This document shows, one piece after another, positions 4,981 to 14,405 of a stretch of 64,000 nucleotides of DNA; the first letter of the stretch is position 1; the number at the start of each line of letters is the position of its first letter. Origin of the DNA: Candidatus Saccharimonadota bacterium (lineage in GTDB: Bacteria; Patescibacteriota; Saccharimonadia; QS-5-54-17). The translations under genes were made by a program, and so were the position numbers. The notes beneath the pieces are model-generated. The model saw only the letters and a program-made list of their open reading frames with translations, was not told the origin of the DNA and did not search any database. Location of the stretch: NCBI GenBank assembly GCA_050486185.1, contig JBJHCT010000003.1:37500-101499 (forward strand), written 5' to 3'.

Positions 4981-6396
4981 ATGTCCACCATCAAAGCCTC
5001 TAAATTCCAACATCCAGACTCAGAAGGCAAGAACATAGAACTAGACTCTAGTGGCAATGCTTCATTTAGTGGGGAGATTAAAGCCTCAAGTATTCGCCAT
5101 CCTAACTCTTCAAACAGCCAAATCACTATGAATATCGATGGCACAGTTAATGTTAGCGGTTTAAGTGTTAACGATGAGGATATTCAAGACACCATATCCC
5201 AAACCAAACTTTCTTCAGAAAAAGAACTTACTCCTGATTTAAACGATGAATACACCCTAGGGCTAGAAGATGCTGGGAAAGTACTGACTTTAGATGATGC
5301 TGATGAAAACAAAGTAGTTACTGTCAATATTCCTAATGATAGTCAAGCTGATTTTGAAGTAGGTTCAACCGTAAAGTTGTATCGCGATAACGAAGCCGGT
5401 ATTACCATCAAAGCTAATGAGAGCGTTAGTATCAAAAGCCCTCTTGCTCCTGGGCCATACTACTTTGTTAGAAAGTATGGTGAACCTCAACTTAGAAAAA
5501 GAGCTGCTAACCAGTGGGTTTTAACCGAAAACGGTCTACTAATCCAGTCCCTACTTGCTGTAGGTGGTAACGAAGTTTTTGAAGAGATTATTAATGGAGC
5601 AGTGTATCGTATCCACGTTTTTACTACCGTAGGCTCTTCACAGGCTTTTGAAGTAGAGCTTGGCGGCGGCGAAGTTGAGTATCTAGTAGTTGCTGGAGGC
5701 GGTGGTGGTGGAATGGTTAACACTGGATCTGTTGGATCCGCAGGGGGTGGAGCCGGCGGATATAGATGTAGCGTCAAAGGAGAATTGTCTGGAGGTAATA
5801 ATCAAGCAGAACCTCCTTTGGTAGTAGAAAAAGGATCTTACACAGTTACAGTGGGAGCAGGAGGAGTAAAAGGTGTAACTACAAATAATCCTGGTGGAGA
5901 CGGTGGTGATTCGACACTAGGATCAGTAGTTAGTTTAGGCGGCGGCGGAGGCGGAGGTACTGGTCACGGTAGAAATGGTGGCTCTGGCGGCGGCGGAGGT
6001 TACGGTGGCGGCTCAGCTGGCAGCGGCACATCCAGTCAAGGCTTTGACGGTGGGGGTGGATCTACAGAAGCCGTTGCTCCCGGATCTGCAGGCGGTGGTG
6101 GAGGTGCATCTGAACCTGGTATTAAACCTGCGACTGCTTCATCAGCGGGGGGTAATGGCGGTGATGGTATAGAGTCAAATATTACAGGATTACCTACCTA
6201 TCGTGCTGGCGGCGGTGGAGGTGGACAGAATAACTCTGCCTGGGGTTCGGGAGGTTTAGGTGGCGGAGCCGATGCTGGTAATGGTAATAGCGGTGAGAAT
6301 AATACTGGCGGTGGCGGAGGTGGAACTCGCTCTGGCTTAGCTAACCCAGGTCAAGGCGGCTCCGGCATAGTCATAGTTCGTTACCGCATCGGTTAA
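4981..6396 (+). CDS. Gly-rich paralog family member 3
   Basis: 471 aa. N-module MSTIKASKFQHPDS plus a second RHPNS repeat. Shares a ~100-aa middle module with member 4 (EYTLxLEDAGKVLTLDD…VVTVNIPND…FEVGS…LYR…PLAPGP). Gly-rich core. C-terminal GGSGIVIVRYRIG. Confidence 0.8.
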   Translation: MSTIKASKFQHPDSEGKNIELDSSGNASFSGEIKASSIRHPNSSNSQITMNIDGTVNVSGLSVNDEDIQDTISQTKLSSEKELTPDLNDEYTLGLEDAGKVLTLDDADENKVVTVNIPNDSQADFEVGSTVKLYRDNEAGITIKANESVSIKSPLAPGPYYFVRKYGEPQLRKRAANQWVLTENGLLIQSLLAVGGNEVFEEIINGAVYRIHVFTTVGSSQAFEVELGGGEVEYLVVAGGGGGGMVNTGSVGSAGGGAGGYRCSVKGELSGGNNQAEPPLVVEKGSYTVTVGAGGVKGVTTNNPGGDGGDSTLGSVVSLGGGGGGGTGHGRNGGSGGGGGYGGGSAGSGTSSQGFDGGGGSTEAVAPGSAGGGGGASEPGIKPATASSAGGNGGDGIESNITGLPTYRAGGGGGGQNNSAWGSGGLGGGADAGNGNSGENNTGGGGGGTRSGLANPGQGGSGIVIVRYRIG

Positions 6397-6451
6397 ACTT
6401 CTTAATAAATAACTAAACCCTGCTAAAATAAACATAAAGGTAAAACCATTT

Positions 6452-7057
6452 ATGTCTACTATTAAAACCTCTAACATCCAACACCCTGACTCACCAGACT
6501 CTAATTTAGAGACCAATGCGGACGGCTCGGTCCATGCTAATAAGTTAGATGCTGATGAATTAACTACTGGGCAAATCAATGCCGATACTATTACAACCGG
6601 CACCATTAATGCTACTGGGATAAATATAGATGATACTAATATCCAAGAAACTATCTCTCAAACTAAACTATCTCTTGAAAAGAATATAGTCCCAAGTGAG
6701 AGCAATGAATACACCCTAGAGCTTGAAGATGCCGGTAAAGTCCTAACTCTTGATGATGAGGATGAAGAAAAAGTAGTGACTGTCAATATTCCTAATGATA
6801 ATGAAGTGAATTTTGAAGTAGGCTCTAATGTTAGTTTGTATCGTGGCGACAATGCCAACATCGAAGTATCTGCTAATAACGGAGTCGATATCAAAACCCC
6901 TCTAGCTCCAGGTCCTAGTAACGCCTCTGGTGGAAATCCAGGTAACGGCACCAATGGCTTAGGCGGTGGAGGCGGTGGATCAAATGGTTATAACGGTAAT
7001 TTAGATGGTGGAGCTGGTGGCTCTGGAATTGTCGTCGTTCGTTATCGCATCGGCTAG
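6452..7057 (+). CDS. Gly-rich paralog family member 4 (short form, 201 aa)
   Basis: Same N-module, the middle module shared with member 3, a short Gly-rich core, and C-terminal GGSGIVVVRYRIG. Its upstream 26 nt are nearly identical to those upstream of member 1. Confidence 0.8.
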   Translation: MSTIKTSNIQHPDSPDSNLETNADGSVHANKLDADELTTGQINADTITTGTINATGINIDDTNIQETISQTKLSLEKNIVPSESNEYTLELEDAGKVLTLDDEDEEKVVTVNIPNDNEVNFEVGSNVSLYRGDNANIEVSANNGVDIKTPLAPGPSNASGGNPGNGTNGLGGGGGGSNGYNGNLDGGAGGSGIVVVRYRIG

Positions 7058-7100
7058 CTTTATCAACAATAATATCCTTAGTTCCTGCTACAATTAAGAC

Positions 7101-8132
7101 ATGATCGCAGTGATTCTAGCTGGAGGTTCTGGTAGCCGGCTTTGGCCTTTGTCGACACCAGATAAGCCGAAGCATTTAATGTCGGTTAATGGTAGCAGTA
7201 CGTTGTTGCAAGATACTCTCGATAGAGCAGCTGTATTTGCTGATGATATTTATGTAGTTACTGATATATCTCATTCAAAGTTAGTAGCAGGTCAGCTCAA
7301 AGGTAGAATCGATGAAGACCATATCATAGTTGAACCTGATCGTCGCGGTACGGCATCGGCAATAGTACTAGCGCTGGCTACACTAGAGTCACTACATGGG
7401 CCCGATATGCCGGTCTGCTTTATGCATGCTGATCACTATATAACCGATAAGCAGGCCTTTGCTGAATCTGTTGAAAAAGCCATTAGTGCTGCTAGGAAAC
7501 ATCAATCCATAGCTCTAATCGGAGTTGAGCCTGACTATCCAGCTACCGGTTTTGGCTATATCAAAAAATCTAAGCAATTATCTGGTGGGGCTTTTGGCGT
7601 AGCTGGGTTTGAAGAGAAGCCAGATCTTGATACTGCCCAAGAGTATCTATCTAGCAGTAAGTATGTTTGGAACCTAGGTTTATTTGCTGCTCCAATCGAT
7701 ATATTTATCAAAGAGATGGATTCACATGCCAAGCACCTGCATCTAGGTCACAAGCAATTAAGTGATCACATCAAAGCGGGTAGGGACTACAGCGATACCT
7801 ATAAATCCATGATCAATGAGGCTATCGATACAGCTTTAATTGAAAAGTCGAGTAATTTAGTAGTGGTACCGGCCGGTTTTGACTGGCTAGATATTGGCTC
7901 CTACAAAGACCTACATGAAGTACTACCTAAAACCGATGAGTATGGCAATACTATAGAGGGCCAAGTGGTAGCTATCGATGCTAAAGACTCGATCATCATG
8001 GAACAGACTGGCGTACCACTAGCTATCTTAGGACTAGATGATGTGGTGGTAGTTAGCACTGATAAGGGTATATTAATTTGTTCTAAAGAGTACTCACAAA
8101 GAATTAAAGAGGCTACCGAGCAAATGCCCTAA
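7101..8132 (+). CDS. sugar-phosphate nucleotidyltransferase (mannose-1-phosphate guanylyltransferase-like)
   Basis: 343 aa. N-terminal IAVILAGGSGSRLWPLS…KPK motif of the NTP-transferase (GlmU/RmlA/ManC) fold. No C-terminal cupin. Confidence 0.75.
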   Translation: MIAVILAGGSGSRLWPLSTPDKPKHLMSVNGSSTLLQDTLDRAAVFADDIYVVTDISHSKLVAGQLKGRIDEDHIIVEPDRRGTASAIVLALATLESLHGPDMPVCFMHADHYITDKQAFAESVEKAISAARKHQSIALIGVEPDYPATGFGYIKKSKQLSGGAFGVAGFEEKPDLDTAQEYLSSSKYVWNLGLFAAPIDIFIKEMDSHAKHLHLGHKQLSDHIKAGRDYSDTYKSMINEAIDTALIEKSSNLVVVPAGFDWLDIGSYKDLHEVLPKTDEYGNTIEGQVVAIDAKDSIIMEQTGVPLAILGLDDVVVVSTDKGILICSKEYSQRIKEATEQMP

Positions 8133-8476
8133 ATACCTGAATTTATACCAAAGACATCAACAAGTGATTCCTTTACTTGGTTAAGTTTGTTTTGATTAAT
8201 TAGGGCTACAGTTTTCTTAATTAAGCTTTCATCTGCTGTAAATATTTTATCAGGGCGTATATAGCTAGTTATGGGTAGGCTAGATATAGCAAAATCCTTT
8301 TCAGATAATACTACTGCTCGTTTACTGCTATATGGTTGAGAGGTGATTTGGCATAAGATTAAGTTATCAAACTCAGCTTGAGCTAGCACTAGAGCAGGCC
8401 TAGATTTACTTTCTGTTAAATCAGAAAAAGGAAAATCAACTACAACTATTGATCCTGGTTCTAAAGTTTCGACCAT
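8129..8476 (-). CDS. mazF: MazF/PemK-family endoribonuclease toxin
   Basis: 115 aa. Sequence GSIVVVDFPFSDLTESKSRPALVL… matches PemK/MazF. Overlaps the upstream AbrB-type antitoxin gene by 16 nt. Confidence 0.7.
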   Translation of the reverse strand: MVETLEPGSIVVVDFPFSDLTESKSRPALVLAQAEFDNLILCQITSQPYSSKRAVVLSEKDFAISSLPITSYIRPDKIFTADESLIKKTVALINQNKLNQVKESLVDVFGINSGI

Positions 8477-8697
8477 GCCTTATCTTCCGCTGGGTTTAGC
8501 CAGTCTTTAGCCAAAGATTTTTCACTTAAAACAGCCGAACTGAAGGAGTCAGCTGTTTTAGCTGGAACTATACGTATCTCCCCGCGCTTAACCTCAAGCT
8601 CAACCTTATCAGGTAGCTCGCTTCTAATTAAAGCTTCTTTGGGTATGCGGATACCTTTGGAATTTCCGATTCTGGTTATATTAGTAATCTTATTCAT
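8461..8697 (-). CDS. mazE: AbrB/MazE-family antitoxin (SpoVT/AbrB domain)
   Basis: Internal Met start gives MNKITNITRIGNSKGIRIPKE…, the swapped-hairpin AbrB motif. Translationally coupled to mazF. Confidence 0.65.
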   Translation of the reverse strand: MNKITNITRIGNSKGIRIPKEALIRSELPDKVELEVKRGEIRIVPAKTADSFSSAVLSEKSLAKDWLNPAEDKAWSKL

Positions 8698-8768
8698 TGT
8701 AATTACAATTGTATATACAAAGTTAAGAAAAGTCAATAAGGTTAATTAGTATTTAGGAGATAAAAAAC

Positions 8769-9545
8769 CTACGGCTGCAACGTGCCACCGTAAACCTGCC
8801 AAGCTAGGGCTGATTTAGCTACTAGGCTTAAAACTATGTAGGTTTTCTCACCATACAGATAGTCATGCCACTTACCGACTTTTTTGTATTGTAAGATCAT
8901 ATTAATAGCAAAGCTATTAAAGAAGACAAAGATAGATCCATATATCCAGTAGACAAAGGTTGGGATTTCACCGACCCCATAACTATTTGCAATCCAGAAG
9001 TAGATAGCTATGACTATCCAAGGAACAGCTCCGGCCAATACGCCGATATTGTAACTCAACCAGTTGGTTTTAGTAGTGCTTTGGTTGTGAACTTCCATGA
9101 CTAGACCCATGAGATTCATCACGGCAGTGAGGGTAAATATCATGATTAAACTACCTAAGTCGTATATACCTACTAGCATGGCTATAGCTACTATCATGAT
9201 AGAAGCAGATAGAGAGTACTCATACCAGCGAGCCTTATTAATACCCAAGGCCAAATTAGCTTCATATTTCTGCCTATAGATAGTAGCGATTATTAGATGA
9301 GCTGTTGCTGATATAGCGAAGAAAGCAAATATCAACCAGGCTAGGGGCAAGCTAAATAGTTCCGTATTCATTAGAACCAAACTCTGAGTAGTATTATCAA
9401 AGTCTAGATAGGAGCCGTTGATAGGTAGAGCAAAGTCACTACTGAGCCAGGCTATAGCGGTTGCTTGAATGGCGTGCAGTCCAGCCATAGCCAGGTTAAA
9501 TGTTTTCAACCTCTTGAGCTTTGAGCTTATATCTTCAGGATTCAT
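8769..9545 (-). CDS. heliorhodopsin-like 7-TM retinal protein
   Basis: 258 aa. The N-terminus …LKTFNLAMAGLHAIQATAIAWLSSDFALP…, the mid-protein WYEYSLSASIMIVAIAML, and the TM7 motif YIVLSLVAKSALAWQ with a candidate Schiff-base Lys match my recollection of the heliorhodopsin (48C12/TaHeR) family. Confidence 0.65.
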   Translation of the reverse strand: MNPEDISSKLKRLKTFNLAMAGLHAIQATAIAWLSSDFALPINGSYLDFDNTTQSLVLMNTELFSLPLAWLIFAFFAISATAHLIIATIYRQKYEANLALGINKARWYEYSLSASIMIVAIAMLVGIYDLGSLIMIFTLTAVMNLMGLVMEVHNQSTTKTNWLSYNIGVLAGAVPWIVIAIYFWIANSYGVGEIPTFVYWIYGSIFVFFNSFAINMILQYKKVGKWHDYLYGEKTYIVLSLVAKSALAWQVYGGTLQP

Positions 9546-9633
9546 ATGTTTTAGCCTCCAATTTTTAAAATTACTTCTTTAAATCAATTATATACCAGTT
9601 CTTCTACACCTAATATGGCGCCAATGTTGACAA

Positions 9634-9648
9634 GTTCGGTCTATGTTC
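9634..9648 (+). promoter_or_regulatory. GTTC-N7-GTTC direct-repeat (LexA-box-like) operator between -35 TTGACA (9627-9632) and -10 TATACT (9651-9656) of lexA
   Basis: Read directly: TTGACAaGTTCggtctatGTTCgaTATACT. The same motif architecture recurs at 10328-10342 upstream of the next gene. Confidence 0.5.
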
Positions 9649-9663
9649 GATATACTAGTTGCC

Positions 9664-10284
9664 ATGATGAAGCAAACCTTAACTAAAAAACAAAAACAGA
9701 TGTTAGATTATATCCGTGAGTCCTCTAGTGAGTTTGGTTATGCGCCTACCTTTAGAGAGATTATGGATGGGCTTAATTACAGCTCAGTAGCTACAGTAGC
9801 TCAACATATCGATAACCTAGTTAAAAAAGGCTATTTATACAAGCGCAACAACGAAGCTAGATCGATTCAGTTAGTTGAAACTGATGTCGATACAGAAAGC
9901 ACGCATGGCTTACCCGTTATGGGTTGGATCGCTGCTGGTGAGCCAATCACTACTTTAGATAACCCCAACGAGACGCTGCAGGTACCTAACTTTATGATCA
10001 AAAGCGACACTAGCTATGTTCTGCAAGTAAAAGGCGAGAGTATGATTGAAGACGGCATATTAGATGGAGACTACATAGTAGTTAGAGAAAACCGCGTACC
10101 CCAAGATGGTGATGTGGTGGTTGCTATGATCGATGGGGACTCTGCTACCCTAAAACACTTCTACAAGGAAGGCGAACGCATTCGTCTAGAGCCGGCTAAC
10201 TCAGCATATGAGCCTATCTATATCGAAAAGGGCAGATCACTAGAAGTCCAAGGTGTAGTTACTGGAGTAGTTAGAGCCTATTAA
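9664..10284 (+). CDS. lexA: LexA repressor (S24 peptidase)
   Basis: N-terminal wHTH (MMKQTLTKKQKQMLDYIRES…GYAPTFREI). C-terminal S24 domain with GESMIEDGILDGDYIVV and the catalytic Ser/Lys context. Confidence 0.85.
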   Translation: MMKQTLTKKQKQMLDYIRESSSEFGYAPTFREIMDGLNYSSVATVAQHIDNLVKKGYLYKRNNEARSIQLVETDVDTESTHGLPVMGWIAAGEPITTLDNPNETLQVPNFMIKSDTSYVLQVKGESMIEDGILDGDYIVVRENRVPQDGDVVVAMIDGDSATLKHFYKEGERIRLEPANSAYEPIYIEKGRSLEVQGVVTGVVRAY

Positions 10285-10327
10285 ACCTCTTCTAGGTTAA
10301 GACTCCATAAAACATCTAACAATTGAT

Positions 10328-10342
10328 TTTCGTATTCTGTTC
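10328..10342 (+). promoter_or_regulatory. second GTTC-N7-GTTC-like operator (TTTC-N7-GTTC) inside a TTGATT / TATAAT promoter
   Basis: Sequence TTGATTttCgtattctGTTCgtaTATAAT lies 16-35 nt upstream of the HNH-like ORF start. Confidence 0.45.
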
Positions 10343-10357
10343 GTATATAATGTTTTC

Positions 10358-10666
10358 ATGCCAAGAGAAAAAAGAACTTACGCAGACCGTAGAGAAGAGC
10401 TCATAAAAGCGGTCGCTAAAAGACGAAGAAAGCTCAAAGAATTAGCCATTGAGTACAAAGGTGGTAGCTGCCAAGTGTGCGGATATGATAGATATCAAGG
10501 AGCTCTTGAGTTTCATCATCTAAACCCTAAAGAGAAGAAATTCGGCATAGCTGACAAGGGATATACCCGCTCCTGGGATGAAGTAAAAGAAGAGTTAGAT
10601 AAATGCGTTTTGGTTTGCGCTAATTGCCATAGGGAAGTTGGGTTTGGTGGTGTGAAGCTGAGTTAG
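10358..10666 (+). CDS. small HNH-family nuclease-like protein
   Basis: 102 aa, basic N-terminus. The CxxCG…EFHHLNP…CANCH pattern has the HNH/His-Me finger layout. Probable SOS-regulon member, by promoter architecture only. Confidence 0.55.
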   Translation: MPREKRTYADRREELIKAVAKRRRKLKELAIEYKGGSCQVCGYDRYQGALEFHHLNPKEKKFGIADKGYTRSWDEVKEELDKCVLVCANCHREVGFGGVKLS

Positions 10667-10722
10667 TTGTTTACGAGGGGGGATATACAGGCTAGAATAT
10701 ATACTGTCCAATAACTGGATGA

Positions 10723-11030
10723 TCCTGGGTAGCTCAATGGTAGAGCAACTGGCTGTGAAAACGCAGCTTTCCGATCGAAAGACGGATCGAATAACGAGGT
10801 GAACTGCTGGAAGCCTAAGGCCTATTTAGCTAAGGTAATCAGCATCCAAGCCTTGCTACAAGATAGCAAGGAAGGTTCAGAGACTATCTCGCAAGAGAGT
10901 ACTCCACTTACCCTGGAGGAAGCGCCTCGCTCCCTTTTATTTTTGGGAGATGATATAGTCCACGCCCGTTGGAAACAGCGGGATAAGTGTAACCAGTAGG
11001 TTGGCGGTTCGAGTCCGCCCCCAGGAGCCA
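10723..11030 (+). tRNA. tRNA-Asn(GUU) interrupted by a group I intron (exon 1 10723-10756, exon 2 10990-11030, CCA encoded)
   Basis: Acceptor TCCTGGG/CCCAGGA, discriminator G, D-arm GCTC-AATGGTA-GAGC, anticodon stem ACTGG/CCAGT, T-arm GGCGG-TTCGAGT-CCGCC. The spliced loop is cuGUUaa, which matches the classical Asn anticodon loop CUQUUAA. Confidence 0.7.
10757..10989 (+). ncRNA. group I self-splicing intron in the tRNA-Asn anticodon loop, ~233 nt, no ORF
   Basis: P1 is exon gcugU paired to the intron guide sequence Gcagc (10763-10767), giving a U•G wobble at the 5' splice site. P7-like 5' strand ..cAGAGACUAucucg.. and 3' strand ..GAUAUAGUCCacgcc.. (compare Tetrahymena …AGAUAUAGUCGGACC). Terminal omega-G at 10989. 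Confidence 0.65.
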
Positions 11031-11994
11031 AGATTGATTTTTAGAACACTCTGCGATTACATCAAAGGGTGTTTTCAGATTAAAAACCAGCTTTTTGTCT
11101 TGAATTACGAGGTTCGAAAGCAGAAAGCGTAAAAGTTTGGATTTTAGTGCCGCTTTCGAACTTTGGAACAGTTTAGGTGCTTTTGTGGCTATCTCTAACA
11201 GATACGAACTGGTTAACATAAAACTTTTGTCATTGTGCGTTAAAGTAACCAGCTGTTCGTCTAGTTGCTCTTGTCGGGCTTTCAGGTCCTTAACATATTC
11301 GTCATAGTCATTGAGAGTAATACGCCCATCGAGCCTGTCCTCGTACAGCACACGCAGCTTTTTCTGTATTGTATCGTACTCTACACGGGTCTGCTCAATA
11401 GCGTTGGCGTAGTAAAGCTGCTGGTTATCGTGGTGCTTACGAAGCTCGTCAATTACGTATTTAACAATATCCTCGTTCATTTCAAGCTGTCCAACCATAG
11501 CAGCAACCTGCGGCACAAGGTCCTTTTCTTTGATGTGAGCCTGTTTGCACGGACCTTTGCCTTTGCTGCATTGCATATAAACGTTACCTTTGGCTGTATA
11601 AGAGGATATGCTACAACCACAGCTACCGCATTTTAATAAGCCGTTAAACGTATAGTCAGTCTTTTGCTTTTTGGTCCTGTTAGTACCACGCTGGTCATTT
11701 ACAGCCTGTACCTTATCAAACATCTTGCGGCTTATAAGCGGCTCGTATTTATGAGGGTACAGTTTGCCGTTATACCGCATAACGCCATAGTAAAACGGGT
11801 TTTTAAGTATCTGCTCAATCGTGCTTTGACCAATAGGGGTTAGTTTGGCTGTATTATTTCTTAAACCCTCTTTTTTGAGTTGTGCAGCAATGCCTCTATA
11901 AGGTGTGCCGATTAACCGCAGTTCAAATGCCTTTTTAATGTAGCCAGCTCGTTCTTGGTCTAACAGTACGGTTGTTTCTTTGTCGCTAATTCTA
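10908..11994 (-). pseudogene. large serine recombinase (integrase) fragment: recombinase domain, Zn-ribbon and coiled-coil, lacking the N-terminal catalytic resolvase domain
   Basis: Homology to serine integrases runs from …ISDKETTVLLDQERAGYIKKAFELRLIG… through the CGSCG Zn-ribbon and coiled-coil to …FDVIAECSKNQ. The first ~100 codons of the 460-aa ORF are antisense read-through of the adjacent ATPase fragment. The last ~40 codons run over the tRNA-Asn 3' exon. Confidence 0.6.
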
Positions 11995-12510
11995 TGGATT
12001 AATCTGGTGACCGACAGTGCGATGGTAATTCCCTTAGGGATGGAGCCGGGTGAGTCCGATCTGATGGAGCGACCACCGCGTAAGCCCAAAAAACCGATCC
12101 TCGGTAAAGTCGTGATTACACGTATGATCTTTATCGCCAGTATAATGGCGTTGGTGACCTTAAGTCTATTCACCTTCTTCCTGCAGTTTATGAGCGAAGA
12201 GTATGCGCGTACTATCGCTTTTAATGCCCTGGTTGTTATGCAGTGGGCCGATGCCTTTAACGCCCGTTCGCTCTGGCAGTCGATATTCATTCGTATTAAG
12301 ACGATGAATAAGTCGTTCTACGTAGGTTTGACGATTGCTGTTTCGATGCATATTTTAGCCATGTTCGGACCGATGCAAAACCCATTGTCAATCGAAAATG
12401 TCCAGCTCAATCATCTGCTCATCACGAGCCTCATCGCTATCGTGCCGATCATCATCGCCGGAGAGCTTCACAAGTTGATTATCCAGCGTATCGATCCAGA
12501 TTTCCGCTAG
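11980..12510 (+). pseudogene. C-terminal fragment (TM7-10) of a P2-type cation-transporting ATPase
   Basis: LILWINLVTDSAMVIPLGMEPGESDLMERPPRKPK… is the signature of the cation_ATPase_C region. No upstream A, P or N domains. It abuts the integrase fragment with no gap. Confidence 0.6.
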
Positions 12511-12710
12511 CAGCGGGCGCTAACTTGGGTTAGGTCGGCTGCGGCAAGCTGATCAAGCGTTAGCTGATCTACGATGACGACCGTAACTTATTAGTACGAG
12601 TTTGATGGAGCTGAATGGGGAGAGGCGGCCGATAGGTTGGACAATGATCACTGCGGTGTGGGATAATAAGCACAAGCAATCGATAAAAAATAAACAGCCT
12701 TAATACACCT

Positions 12711-14405
12711 ATGGATCTCAGTAGTCTCTTTACACAAATTAGCTTGATTGTAGCCGTCGGCGCAGTGGTTGCAACGGTGATGCGGCTGTTGCGACAACCG
12801 CTGATTATCGGCCATATCGTGACCGGAATCATCGTTGGCCCGATGTTACTAGCTATTGTTGGACCTGGCGGTGAGCTGGGCGGATTGAGTCGAATTGGCA
12901 TCGTATTACTGCTATTTATCGTCGGGCTGGAAATTAGCCTCAAAGTTTTCTCCAAGCTAGGGAGCGTAGTCTTCATAGCAGCACTGGTCCAGGTAGGGGT
13001 GGTCACAACTGTCGGAGCCACGGTGGCTACCGCTTTTGGTTTTGCTGGCGTAGAGAGCTTTATTATCGGCCTCGCCTTAGCTCTTAGCAGTACCTTGATC
13101 AGCGTGAAGTTATTCGGAGACAAGAAGGAGTTGACTCGACTGTATGCACAGATTGCGGTCGGGGTGCTGTTGCTGCAGGATATGGTGGCGACTGGTGCCA
13201 AAGTCTATCTATCTGGTTATGAAAAAAGTGGCTCTTTGATTGACATCCTTTGGTTAGGAGGCCGCGGCCTCGCCGCTTTATTAGCTCTCTACTTAACAGT
13301 CCGTTATATCTTGCCGAAATTGACTCATGCGATCGAGGATACCAAGGAGTTGCTTTTGTTATTCTCCCTGGGGTGGGGGTTGGGGGTGGCGACGCTGTTC
13401 GATATGGTCGGCTTTTCGATAGAAATCGGAGCCTTGCTGGCTGGAGTTAGTCTGGCCTCAGTGCCGTATGTGCACGAGATGGCATCACGGCTCAAGCCGC
13501 TACGCGACTTCTTCATTGTGCTGTTTTTCATCTCGATTGGCAGCACATTACTGCCGGGACAGTTGACGCAAGCGCTGCTGCCAGCAGCAATCTTTACGGT
13601 GCTCGTCTTACTCTTGAAGCCACTGGTGATTTTAATGTGTATGGGGCTACTTGGTTATGCCAAACGGACAAGTTTTAAAACAGCCGTTTCACTGGCCCAG
13701 GTGAGCGAGTTTTCATTAGTCTTAATCGTAGGGGCGCTAAGTGCCGGATTAATCAGTGCCGAAGTCCAGGCTATTATTACGGTAGTGGCACTTGTTACCT
13801 TCGCCGGCTCTACCTACATGATGAAGTATGACAACCAACTCTATAAGATGCTGGAACCACACTTGCGGCTATTTGAACGCAAAACCACTCGGTTAGAGCA
13901 ACCTGCTAGCCTTAGCCATTACCCGGCAGTGCTGTTCGGTTACCGCAAGGGCGGGATGGAGTTTATTCGGACATTTAAGAGCATGGGTAAGCGGTTTGTA
14001 GTGGTAGATTACGACCCAGAAGCTATCGAGCTACTCGAGCGCCAGCAGGTAAACTTGATTTTTGGCGATGCCACCGACCCAGAACTACTGGAAGAGCTAG
14101 GCCTAAACCAAAGCAAGGTCATAGTTTCAACCATTTCTGACCTCAAAACTAACGAGTTTTTAGCCCAGTGGTTGCACATCAATAATCCAGCAGCTGTCTT
14201 TGTCTGTTCGGCCGATAATGCGGCTCAGGCCAGCGCCCTCTATGAGCTGGGGGCTGCGTATGTGATGATGCCGCACTTTATCGGCTCGGAAAAAATCGGC
14301 AGTTTTATGAAGCGTAATGGACTCAAGAAGTCGGAGTTCCATAAATTTCGCCAACGCCACTTGCAGTATCTAGAGACACATTATGCCTTCGAATCAAACA
14401 GCTAA
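12711..14405 (+). CDS. Kef-type monovalent cation:proton antiporter (CPA2) with C-terminal RCK/TrkA-N domain
   Basis: 564 aa. About 12 TM helices of a Na+/H+-exchanger fold, followed by a Rossmann RCK domain (…RFVVVDYDPEAIELL…FGDATDPELLEE…). Confidence 0.8.
   Translation: MDLSSLFTQISLIVAVGAVVATVMRLLRQPLIIGHIVTGIIVGPMLLAIVGPGGELGGLSRIGIVLLLFIVGLEISLKVFSKLGSVVFIAALVQVGVVTTVGATVATAFGFAGVESFIIGLALALSSTLISVKLFGDKKELTRLYAQIAVGVLLLQDMVATGAKVYLSGYEKSGSLIDILWLGGRGLAALLALYLTVRYILPKLTHAIEDTKELLLLFSLGWGLGVATLFDMVGFSIEIGALLAGVSLASVPYVHEMASRLKPLRDFFIVLFFISIGSTLLPGQLTQALLPAAIFTVLVLLLKPLVILMCMGLLGYAKRTSFKTAVSLAQVSEFSLVLIVGALSAGLISAEVQAIITVVALVTFAGSTYMMKYDNQLYKMLEPHLRLFERKTTRLEQPASLSHYPAVLFGYRKGGMEFIRTFKSMGKRFVVVDYDPEAIELLERQQVNLIFGDATDPELLEELGLNQSKVIVSTISDLKTNEFLAQWLHINNPAAVFVCSADNAAQASALYELGAAYVMMPHFIGSEKIGSFMKRNGLKKSEFHKFRQRHLQYLETHYAFESNS

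Follow-up and report, generated by a model that had tools for sequence, protein, structure and literature searches.

The window, meaning the whole 64-kb stretch of DNA analysed, is part of a bacterial chromosome with genes for ArgRS, BipA and the CCA-adding enzyme, and carries on its forward strand a tRNA-Asn gene split in the anticodon loop by a group I intron and preceded by a small, free-standing gene for an HNH homing-endonuclease-like protein. Exon 1 of the tRNA gene (10723..10756) comprises tRNA positions 1-35 and ends in C32-U33-G34-U35, its 3' end in the DNA reading ...GGCTGT at 10756 (ACTGGCTGT). Exon 2 with the encoded CCA (10990..11033) runs from U36 to G73 and on through CCA at 11031-11033, the exon proper (10990-11030) beginning with TAACCAG (TAACCAGT). 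The 233 nt between the exons (10757..10989), recognised as an intron by the Rfam model, by covariation and by identity to published introns, hold no ORF and have the layout of subgroup IA. The HNH gene (10358..10666, + strand; 102 aa; Pfam HNH PF01844, 25.6 bits) ends 56 nt upstream of exon 1. Promoter-like sites lie on the same strand 5' of both genes, TTGATT-17-TATAAT (10/12) at 10323..10351 for the HNH gene and TTTACG-17-TAGAAT (9/12) at 10670..10698 for the tRNA gene, both being consensus matches only.

When the exons are joined they form a canonical 75-nt cloverleaf, which ARAGORN identifies as tRNA-Asn(gtt), in agreement with the original prediction of a canonical tRNA-Asn; the elements on which that prediction drew, namely the acceptor TCCTGGG/CCCAGGA, the discriminator G at 11030 and the T-loop TTCGAGT, are all present in the sequence. 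Searches of the window for uninterrupted genes with ARAGORN and the Rfam tRNA model returned a tRNA-Pro and a tRNA-Gln only, and neither a second tRNA-Asn nor a copy of the tRNA-Asn 3' half occurs in the 64 kb. The split gene is thus, as had been proposed, the sole tRNA-Asn in the window, and the accompanying claim that splicing would be essential holds for the 64-kb window only.

The Rfam model RF00028 (Intron_gpI) matched positions 10746-10982 over its full length (model positions 1-253) with 69.3 bits, against a gathering cut-off of 50 bits, and an E-value of 1.6e-15. Together with the covariation described below, this E-value excludes a chance match. The predicted intron of about 233 nt at 10757-10989 was recovered exactly, with G10989 as the terminal omega-G that had been called, and no further group I intron was found in the 64-kb window. 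The omega-G is read directly from the sequence as the last intron nucleotide; across the wider family it was imposed by the search pattern, and its conservation there is not independent evidence.

We wrote a secondary structure model from the window sequence, comprising P1 to P9 with the P3/P7 pseudoknot, and evaluated it on an alignment of 64 sequences, the window copy and 63 short homologs. Standard pairs filled 90.7% of the cells, compared with 37-45% when the 3' partners were slid by 1-3 columns, and the covariation score was 0.474 compared with at most 0.111 in the slid controls; none of 500 shuffles matched any observed measure. Because the model was drawn from one of the aligned sequences it is somewhat favoured on the paired-cells measure, yet compensatory changes were numerous nonetheless, occurring in 49 of the 67 pairs. 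P2, P3, P4, P5, P6, P8 and P9 all covary among the 64 sequences, every core helix of the window copy forms standard pairs, and all family-invariant residues are kept in the window intron.

The P1 hairpin (10752..10767) joins exon nucleotides G31-U35 and the first intron base, G+1, to the internal guide sequence C-GCAG-C (10762-10767) across an AAAA loop, through the pairs G10752-C10767, C10753-G10766, U10754-A10765, G10755-C10764, U10756.G10763 and G10757-C10762. The U10756.G10763 wobble, which marks the 5' splice site, is U.G in 64/64 aligned sequences, and the pair beside it, which links the first intron base to the one preceding the guide G, covaries (GC 26, CG 13, AU 11); in a separate tally this pair was formed in 65/79 homologs. 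P1 with its U.G wobble therefore stands as originally drawn, on both pairing and conservation. P2 (10771..10785) is a 5-bp helix in which A10774 is bulged and GAAA at 10777-10780 forms the tetraloop (5/5 pairs compensatory, 98% paired). The 5' strand of P3 (10795..10801) pairs with the likewise covarying 3' strand (10923..10929) to form the pseudoknot with P7, with compensatory changes in 4/7 pairs. P4 (10805-10810/10839-10844), 100% paired and covarying, encloses P5/P5a (10814-10835), the whole domain occupying 10805..10844, and is followed by P6/P6a (10846..10875), also backed by the covariation test. In P7, a 5' strand made of G10880, the bulged A10881 and G10882-A10886 (10880..10886) pairs with UAGUCC (10956..10961); all six pairs are invariant (64/64), so covariation is uninformative on this helix. 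The two P7 halves named by the original prediction, AGAGACUA (10879-10886) and GAUAUAGUCC (10952-10961), do contain both P7 strands along with joining segments. G10882-C10960, beside the bulged A, is presumably the guanosine-binding site, as in group I introns generally. The remaining helices are the P7.1 hairpin UCUC-GCAA-GAGA (10887..10898; 99% paired, 3/4 pairs compensatory), the P7.2 hairpin (10902..10918; 5/5 pairs compensatory), P8 (10930..10949), which shows compensatory changes, and P9 (10965..10982), a 7-bp helix with a GAAA tetraloop and 6/7 pairs compensatory.

Two features of the loops were observed in passing. The P5 internal loop CCUAAG...CUAAGG (10814-10835) resembles the 11-nt GAAA-tetraloop receptor, many homologs having CCUAA...UAUGG in this place, and the L2 (10777-10780) and L9 (10972-10975) loops are both GAAA, which suggests docking contacts of L9 with P5, or of L2.

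The presence of P7.1 and P7.2 between P7 and the P3 3' strand is the hallmark of subgroup IA, and by this hairpin layout the intron is of the IA structural type. The classical bacterial tRNA introns belong to subgroup IC3, which has no P7.1/P7.2; with both hairpins present and the insertion at 35/36, assignment to IC3 was rejected. The classical introns lie in tRNA-Leu(UAA) at 34/35, in tRNA-fMet at 33/34 and, in Azoarcus tRNA-Ile(CAU) and Agrobacterium tRNA-Arg(CCU), at 36/37. With these the window intron shares the anticodon-loop location, a P1 built from anticodon-loop bases, the U.G wobble, the omega-G and, as predicted here, self-splicing, in which the anticodon stem probably aids exon alignment; it differs from them in host tRNA, in insertion position and in having an IA rather than an IC3 layout.

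The insertion point is open to a second reading, in which the whole 233-nt intron slides 2 nt upstream to fall between positions 33 and 34, U10754 precedes the 5' splice site, G10987 becomes the omega-G and the gene would encode a tRNA-Thr(UGU). As GTG precedes TAA in the window, the shifted reading also yields a 7-nt loop, CUUGUAA, and ARAGORN run in intron mode on the unspliced gene makes exactly this call, which 67/87 family members would likewise permit among the matches listed. On the Thr reading, however, the base before the 5' splice site, U10754, forms a Watson-Crick pair with A10765, whereas the invariant wobble is U10756.G10763, and the other 20/87 homologs among the matches listed lack a G at position -3 and are therefore unreadable as tRNA-Thr. 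All 87 members fit the Asn reading, but this was imposed by the search pattern. The tRNA body itself is Asn-like: its identity to intron-less tRNA-Asn genes from the fetched loci is 0.76-0.79, compared with 0.68 or less to tRNA-Thr(UGU) genes, and like the former it has a UCC.../...GGA acceptor with U1-A72 and G73, tRNA-Thr(UGU) genes beginning GCC or GCU. The same 2-nt miscall, made by ARAGORN and tFind, is documented in the literature, where it was settled in favour of Asn by sequencing the spliced product (PMC13011429). We rejected tRNA-Thr(UGU), which is very improbable given the wobble position after U35, the covarying adjacent P1 pair and the Asn-like body, and the predicted Asn(GUU) identity with insertion between positions 35 and 36 survives this comparison. 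Standard tRNA finders thus either overlook a gene of this kind or report it as tRNA-Thr, and as a result the genome that carries it seems to be without tRNA-Asn and scores as less complete; such failures of standard tools on split tRNA-Asn genes have been reported (PMC13011429).

The combination of an Asn(GUU) host with the 35/36 site had been considered unusual in the original prediction, a view not borne out by published work. According to PMC13011429, host and site were first listed in the tFind preprint of Williams 2020 (bioRxiv 10.1101/2020.01.27.920355) as class 'Asn.4Ug', and they were characterised by Nakagawa et al. (bioRxiv 10.1101/2025.07.03.662931, July 2025, then mSystems 2026, PMC13011429), who found, across 95 complete genomes of Patescibacteria, 15 tRNA-Asn(GUU) genes split at 35/36 by a group I intron. 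In that study 25/28 introns at 35/36 were of subgroup IA and 81% of bacterial tRNA introns of subgroup IC, and the intron of GCA_016700035.1 self-spliced in vitro precisely at 35/36, a change of its omega-G to C stopping exon ligation (PMC13011429). Over aligned positions the window intron shows 74% identity to this tested intron and 77-79% to four further published members (Table S3 of PMC13011429). It agrees with the published class in host tRNA, insertion site, U-1, omega-G, IA-type layout and the Thr(UGU) miscall by ARAGORN, and like most members it is of the short, ORF-less form; it differs in being a new sequence and in the position of the HNH gene, which lies outside the intron, 5' of the tRNA gene, an arrangement unmentioned in PMC13011429, where the term 'free-standing' occurs 0 times. 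The intron thus adds one member to a published class and is not a discovery in itself.

We put at about 0.9 the probability that this locus is a functional tRNA-Asn(GUU) gene split at 35/36 by an ORF-less, self-splicing IA-type group I intron of the published Patescibacteria class, a reading based on comparison of sequences. By homology to the experimentally spliced relative the predicted splicing mechanism is well founded. Transcription of the gene would probably be driven by the promoter-like site at 10670-10698. P1 would form between the guide bases G-C-A-G (10763-10766) and C32-U35, so that cleavage falls at the U35.G wobble, where a free guanosine docked in P7 would attack the bond that follows U10756. 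The terminal G10989 would next take its place in the same P7 pocket, and the freed 3'-OH of U35 would attack after G10989, joining ...CUGU to UAACC... and restoring the GUU anticodon. Both transesterification steps follow general group I chemistry, which has been shown experimentally for a homolog of the class. The UAA that begins exon 2 finds no P10 partner 5' of the guide G, and we infer for this reason that the exons are aligned by the tRNA anticodon stem, which probably holds them together as in other tRNA introns.

The intron might instead have decayed and lost its splicing activity, leaving a tRNA-Asn pseudogene, with an intact copy elsewhere in the genome, of which the window covers 64 kb; the DNA downstream does show decay, in the form of a truncated recombinase and an ATPase fragment. 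Relic status is nevertheless improbable, since the core helices are all intact, with standard pairs and the family-invariant residues kept, the Rfam score is well over the cut-off, the tRNA exons are canonical and intron-bearing and intron-less copies with the same anticodon rarely occur in one genome (PMC13011429).

The distribution of the split gene's relatives was surveyed by scanning a genome collection with a pattern consisting of the P7 3'-strand core, then G|UAA, then a T-arm at tRNA spacing. At least 120 loci matched, mostly in Patescibacteria/CPR MAGs, the others among the matches listed coming from Omnitrophota, Elusimicrobia, Planctomycetes and MAGs labelled Gammaproteobacteria. For at least 87 loci a clean tRNA-Asn could be delimited, in which exon 1 ends in CTGT and the intron measures 185-630 nt. 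The pattern demanded GATATAGTC and consequently missed GAGATAGTC members such as the experimentally tested one, so that these counts are lower bounds. The best matches of window proteins to the named scan loci reached only 30-54% identity among the matches listed. The spread of the intron family suggests that the window, too, comes from a CPR bacterium.

The HNH protein encoded upstream of exon 1 belongs to the same family as ORFs found inside the long introns of this class, to which it is 52-69% identical (phmmer E 1e-36 to 5e-49), and it keeps all the family-invariant CxxC/HH/N/CxxCH residues. In the long introns (511-630 nt) the HNH gene occupies the P1 loop, starting 13-60 nt after the 5' splice site, and the C-terminal ...TQLP of the intron-borne proteins is encoded by the guide sequence (ACGCAGCTTCC), the frame running on into P2; the free-standing copies have no such TQLP tail. 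A metagenome scan with the endonuclease returned more than 580 relatives, and the best 80 of these were sorted by context: 61/80 lie inside the P1 loop of the intron, about 8/80 stand free immediately 5' of a split tRNA-Asn, as in the window, and at least 8 of the same 80 have an intron-less tRNA-Asn as neighbour, in some cases within phage-like tRNA arrays. A neighbour-joining tree intersperses the free-standing copies with intron-borne ones, a topology that is only indicative, given the shortness of the protein and the lack of support values. Within the same best 80 of more than 580, the nearest relatives of the window protein are intron-borne, with about 76% amino acid identity.

In one metagenome locus (L160, 2600-2950) the 3' end of a free-standing HNH ORF reaches into the tRNA-Asn gene, with the stop TAG in ...TCCGGGGTAGCTCAG..., and overlaps tRNA exon 1 by about 11 nt. 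In four others (L151, L197, L199 and L201) HNH homologs stand beside an intron-less tRNA-Asn in dense tRNA arrays, with up to 25 tRNAs in 5 kb and one contig from a human-gut metagenome; these arrays are probably phage tRNA clusters, and their HNH homologs recall SegB of the T4 tRNA region. Two loci with near-identical HNH proteins, L024 and L159, were considered as an intron-plus/intron-minus allelic pair and rejected, their homology being restricted to the HNH gene (81% nt identity) with none in the tRNA flanks.

A free-standing endonuclease gene beside an ORF-less intron is the layout of collaborative homing systems, described for F-CphI and the psbA intron of cyanophage S-PM2 and for mobE and I-TevIII in T-even phages (PMC3984707), and it is the layout found in the window, where the HNH ORF 10358-10666 stands free beside an intron without an ORF. 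The pattern of HNH contexts fits, by analogy, the collaborative-homing and endonuclease-invasion models of the same source (PMC3984707). In further agreement with those systems, the endonuclease family also occurs embedded in the intron in other genomes. The window differs from them in that the host is a cellular tRNA gene rather than a phage protein gene, and that the enzyme is an HNH protein of small size (about 100 aa) for which cleavage of the insertion site is suggested by intron-borne relatives only. The protein would probably cut tRNA-Asn loci devoid of the HNH gene or of the intron, and in doing so would spread its own gene, possibly with the intron; the free-standing arrangement may in this way allow homing in trans. 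The other stages of such a cycle do exist, as the same endonuclease occurs both beside intron-less tRNA-Asn and embedded in the intron. Tentatively, and at clearly less than even odds, the ORF-less intron and free-standing HNH gene could be read as a mobile intron at an active point of its life cycle, with homing in trans and repeated joining and separation at tRNA-Asn in CPR bacteria and phages.

The HNH gene may equally have no working relation to the intron and be an independent or decayed selfish element that favours the neighbourhood of tRNA-Asn and homes without an intron, a possibility that we place not far short of an even chance. The copies beside intron-less tRNA-Asn (at least 8 loci in the best 80 of more than 580, some in phage-like arrays) point in this direction, and no intron or exon remnants were found around the free-standing HNH genes, the one in the window included, when these were searched for signs of the direction of movement. 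Against it stand the 61/80 relatives (best 80 of more than 580) that this intron class carries in its P1 loop, the intron-borne nearest relatives of the window protein and the retention of all its catalytic-motif residues. On balance we regard an unrelated free-standing lifestyle and collaborative homing as about equally likely. Were collaborative homing to apply, introns devoid of an endonuclease gene would not necessarily be immobile, contrary to the limited horizontal transfer inferred in published work. The occurrence of the HNH gene inside the intron, beside split tRNA-Asn and beside intact tRNA-Asn offers a natural series for probing how free-standing endonucleases and ORF-less introns come together as mobile introns. 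The intron itself is of low novelty, the endonuclease arrangement of modest novelty.

Upstream of the HNH gene, a direct repeat of TTCGTAT (two copies, 11 nt apart, 10329-10346) lies between the -35 and -10 elements of the promoter-like site, just downstream of lexA (9643-10284), and could serve as an operator. A Logan contig from run SRR31311414 (SRR31311414_753913, L121) matches window positions 5845-10757 at 100% identity and breaks off 1 nt past the 5' splice site (...GGCTGTG), which hints at a branch of the assembly graph at the intron boundary, caused for example by another intron variant in the sample, or else at a coverage drop or artefact. Megablast of positions 9000-13000 against a phage collection gave no match.

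Downstream, the reverse strand carries a serine-recombinase remnant (10908-12290) with Recombinase and zinc-ribbon domains and no match to the catalytic resolvase domain; its ORF crosses tRNA exon 2 in antisense and reaches into the intron. The remnant is abutted by the C-terminal part of a P-type ATPase gene (11980-12510, + strand), and the junction looks like a scar that an integration or rearrangement left beside the tRNA 3' end, of which no repeat was found in the window. Recombinase homologs also occur near tRNA-Asn in six of the other loci (L086, L094, L020, L002, L029 and L117). On the far side of lexA and adjoining it, a heliorhodopsin gene (8769-9545, - strand; Pfam PF18761, 321.7 bits) was identified, and at 8129-8736 (- strand) a PemK/MazF-type toxin ORF of 115 aa, with its Pfam assignment taken from the Logan gene calls, overlaps an upstream ORF of 91 aa; the two look like a toxin-antitoxin pair.
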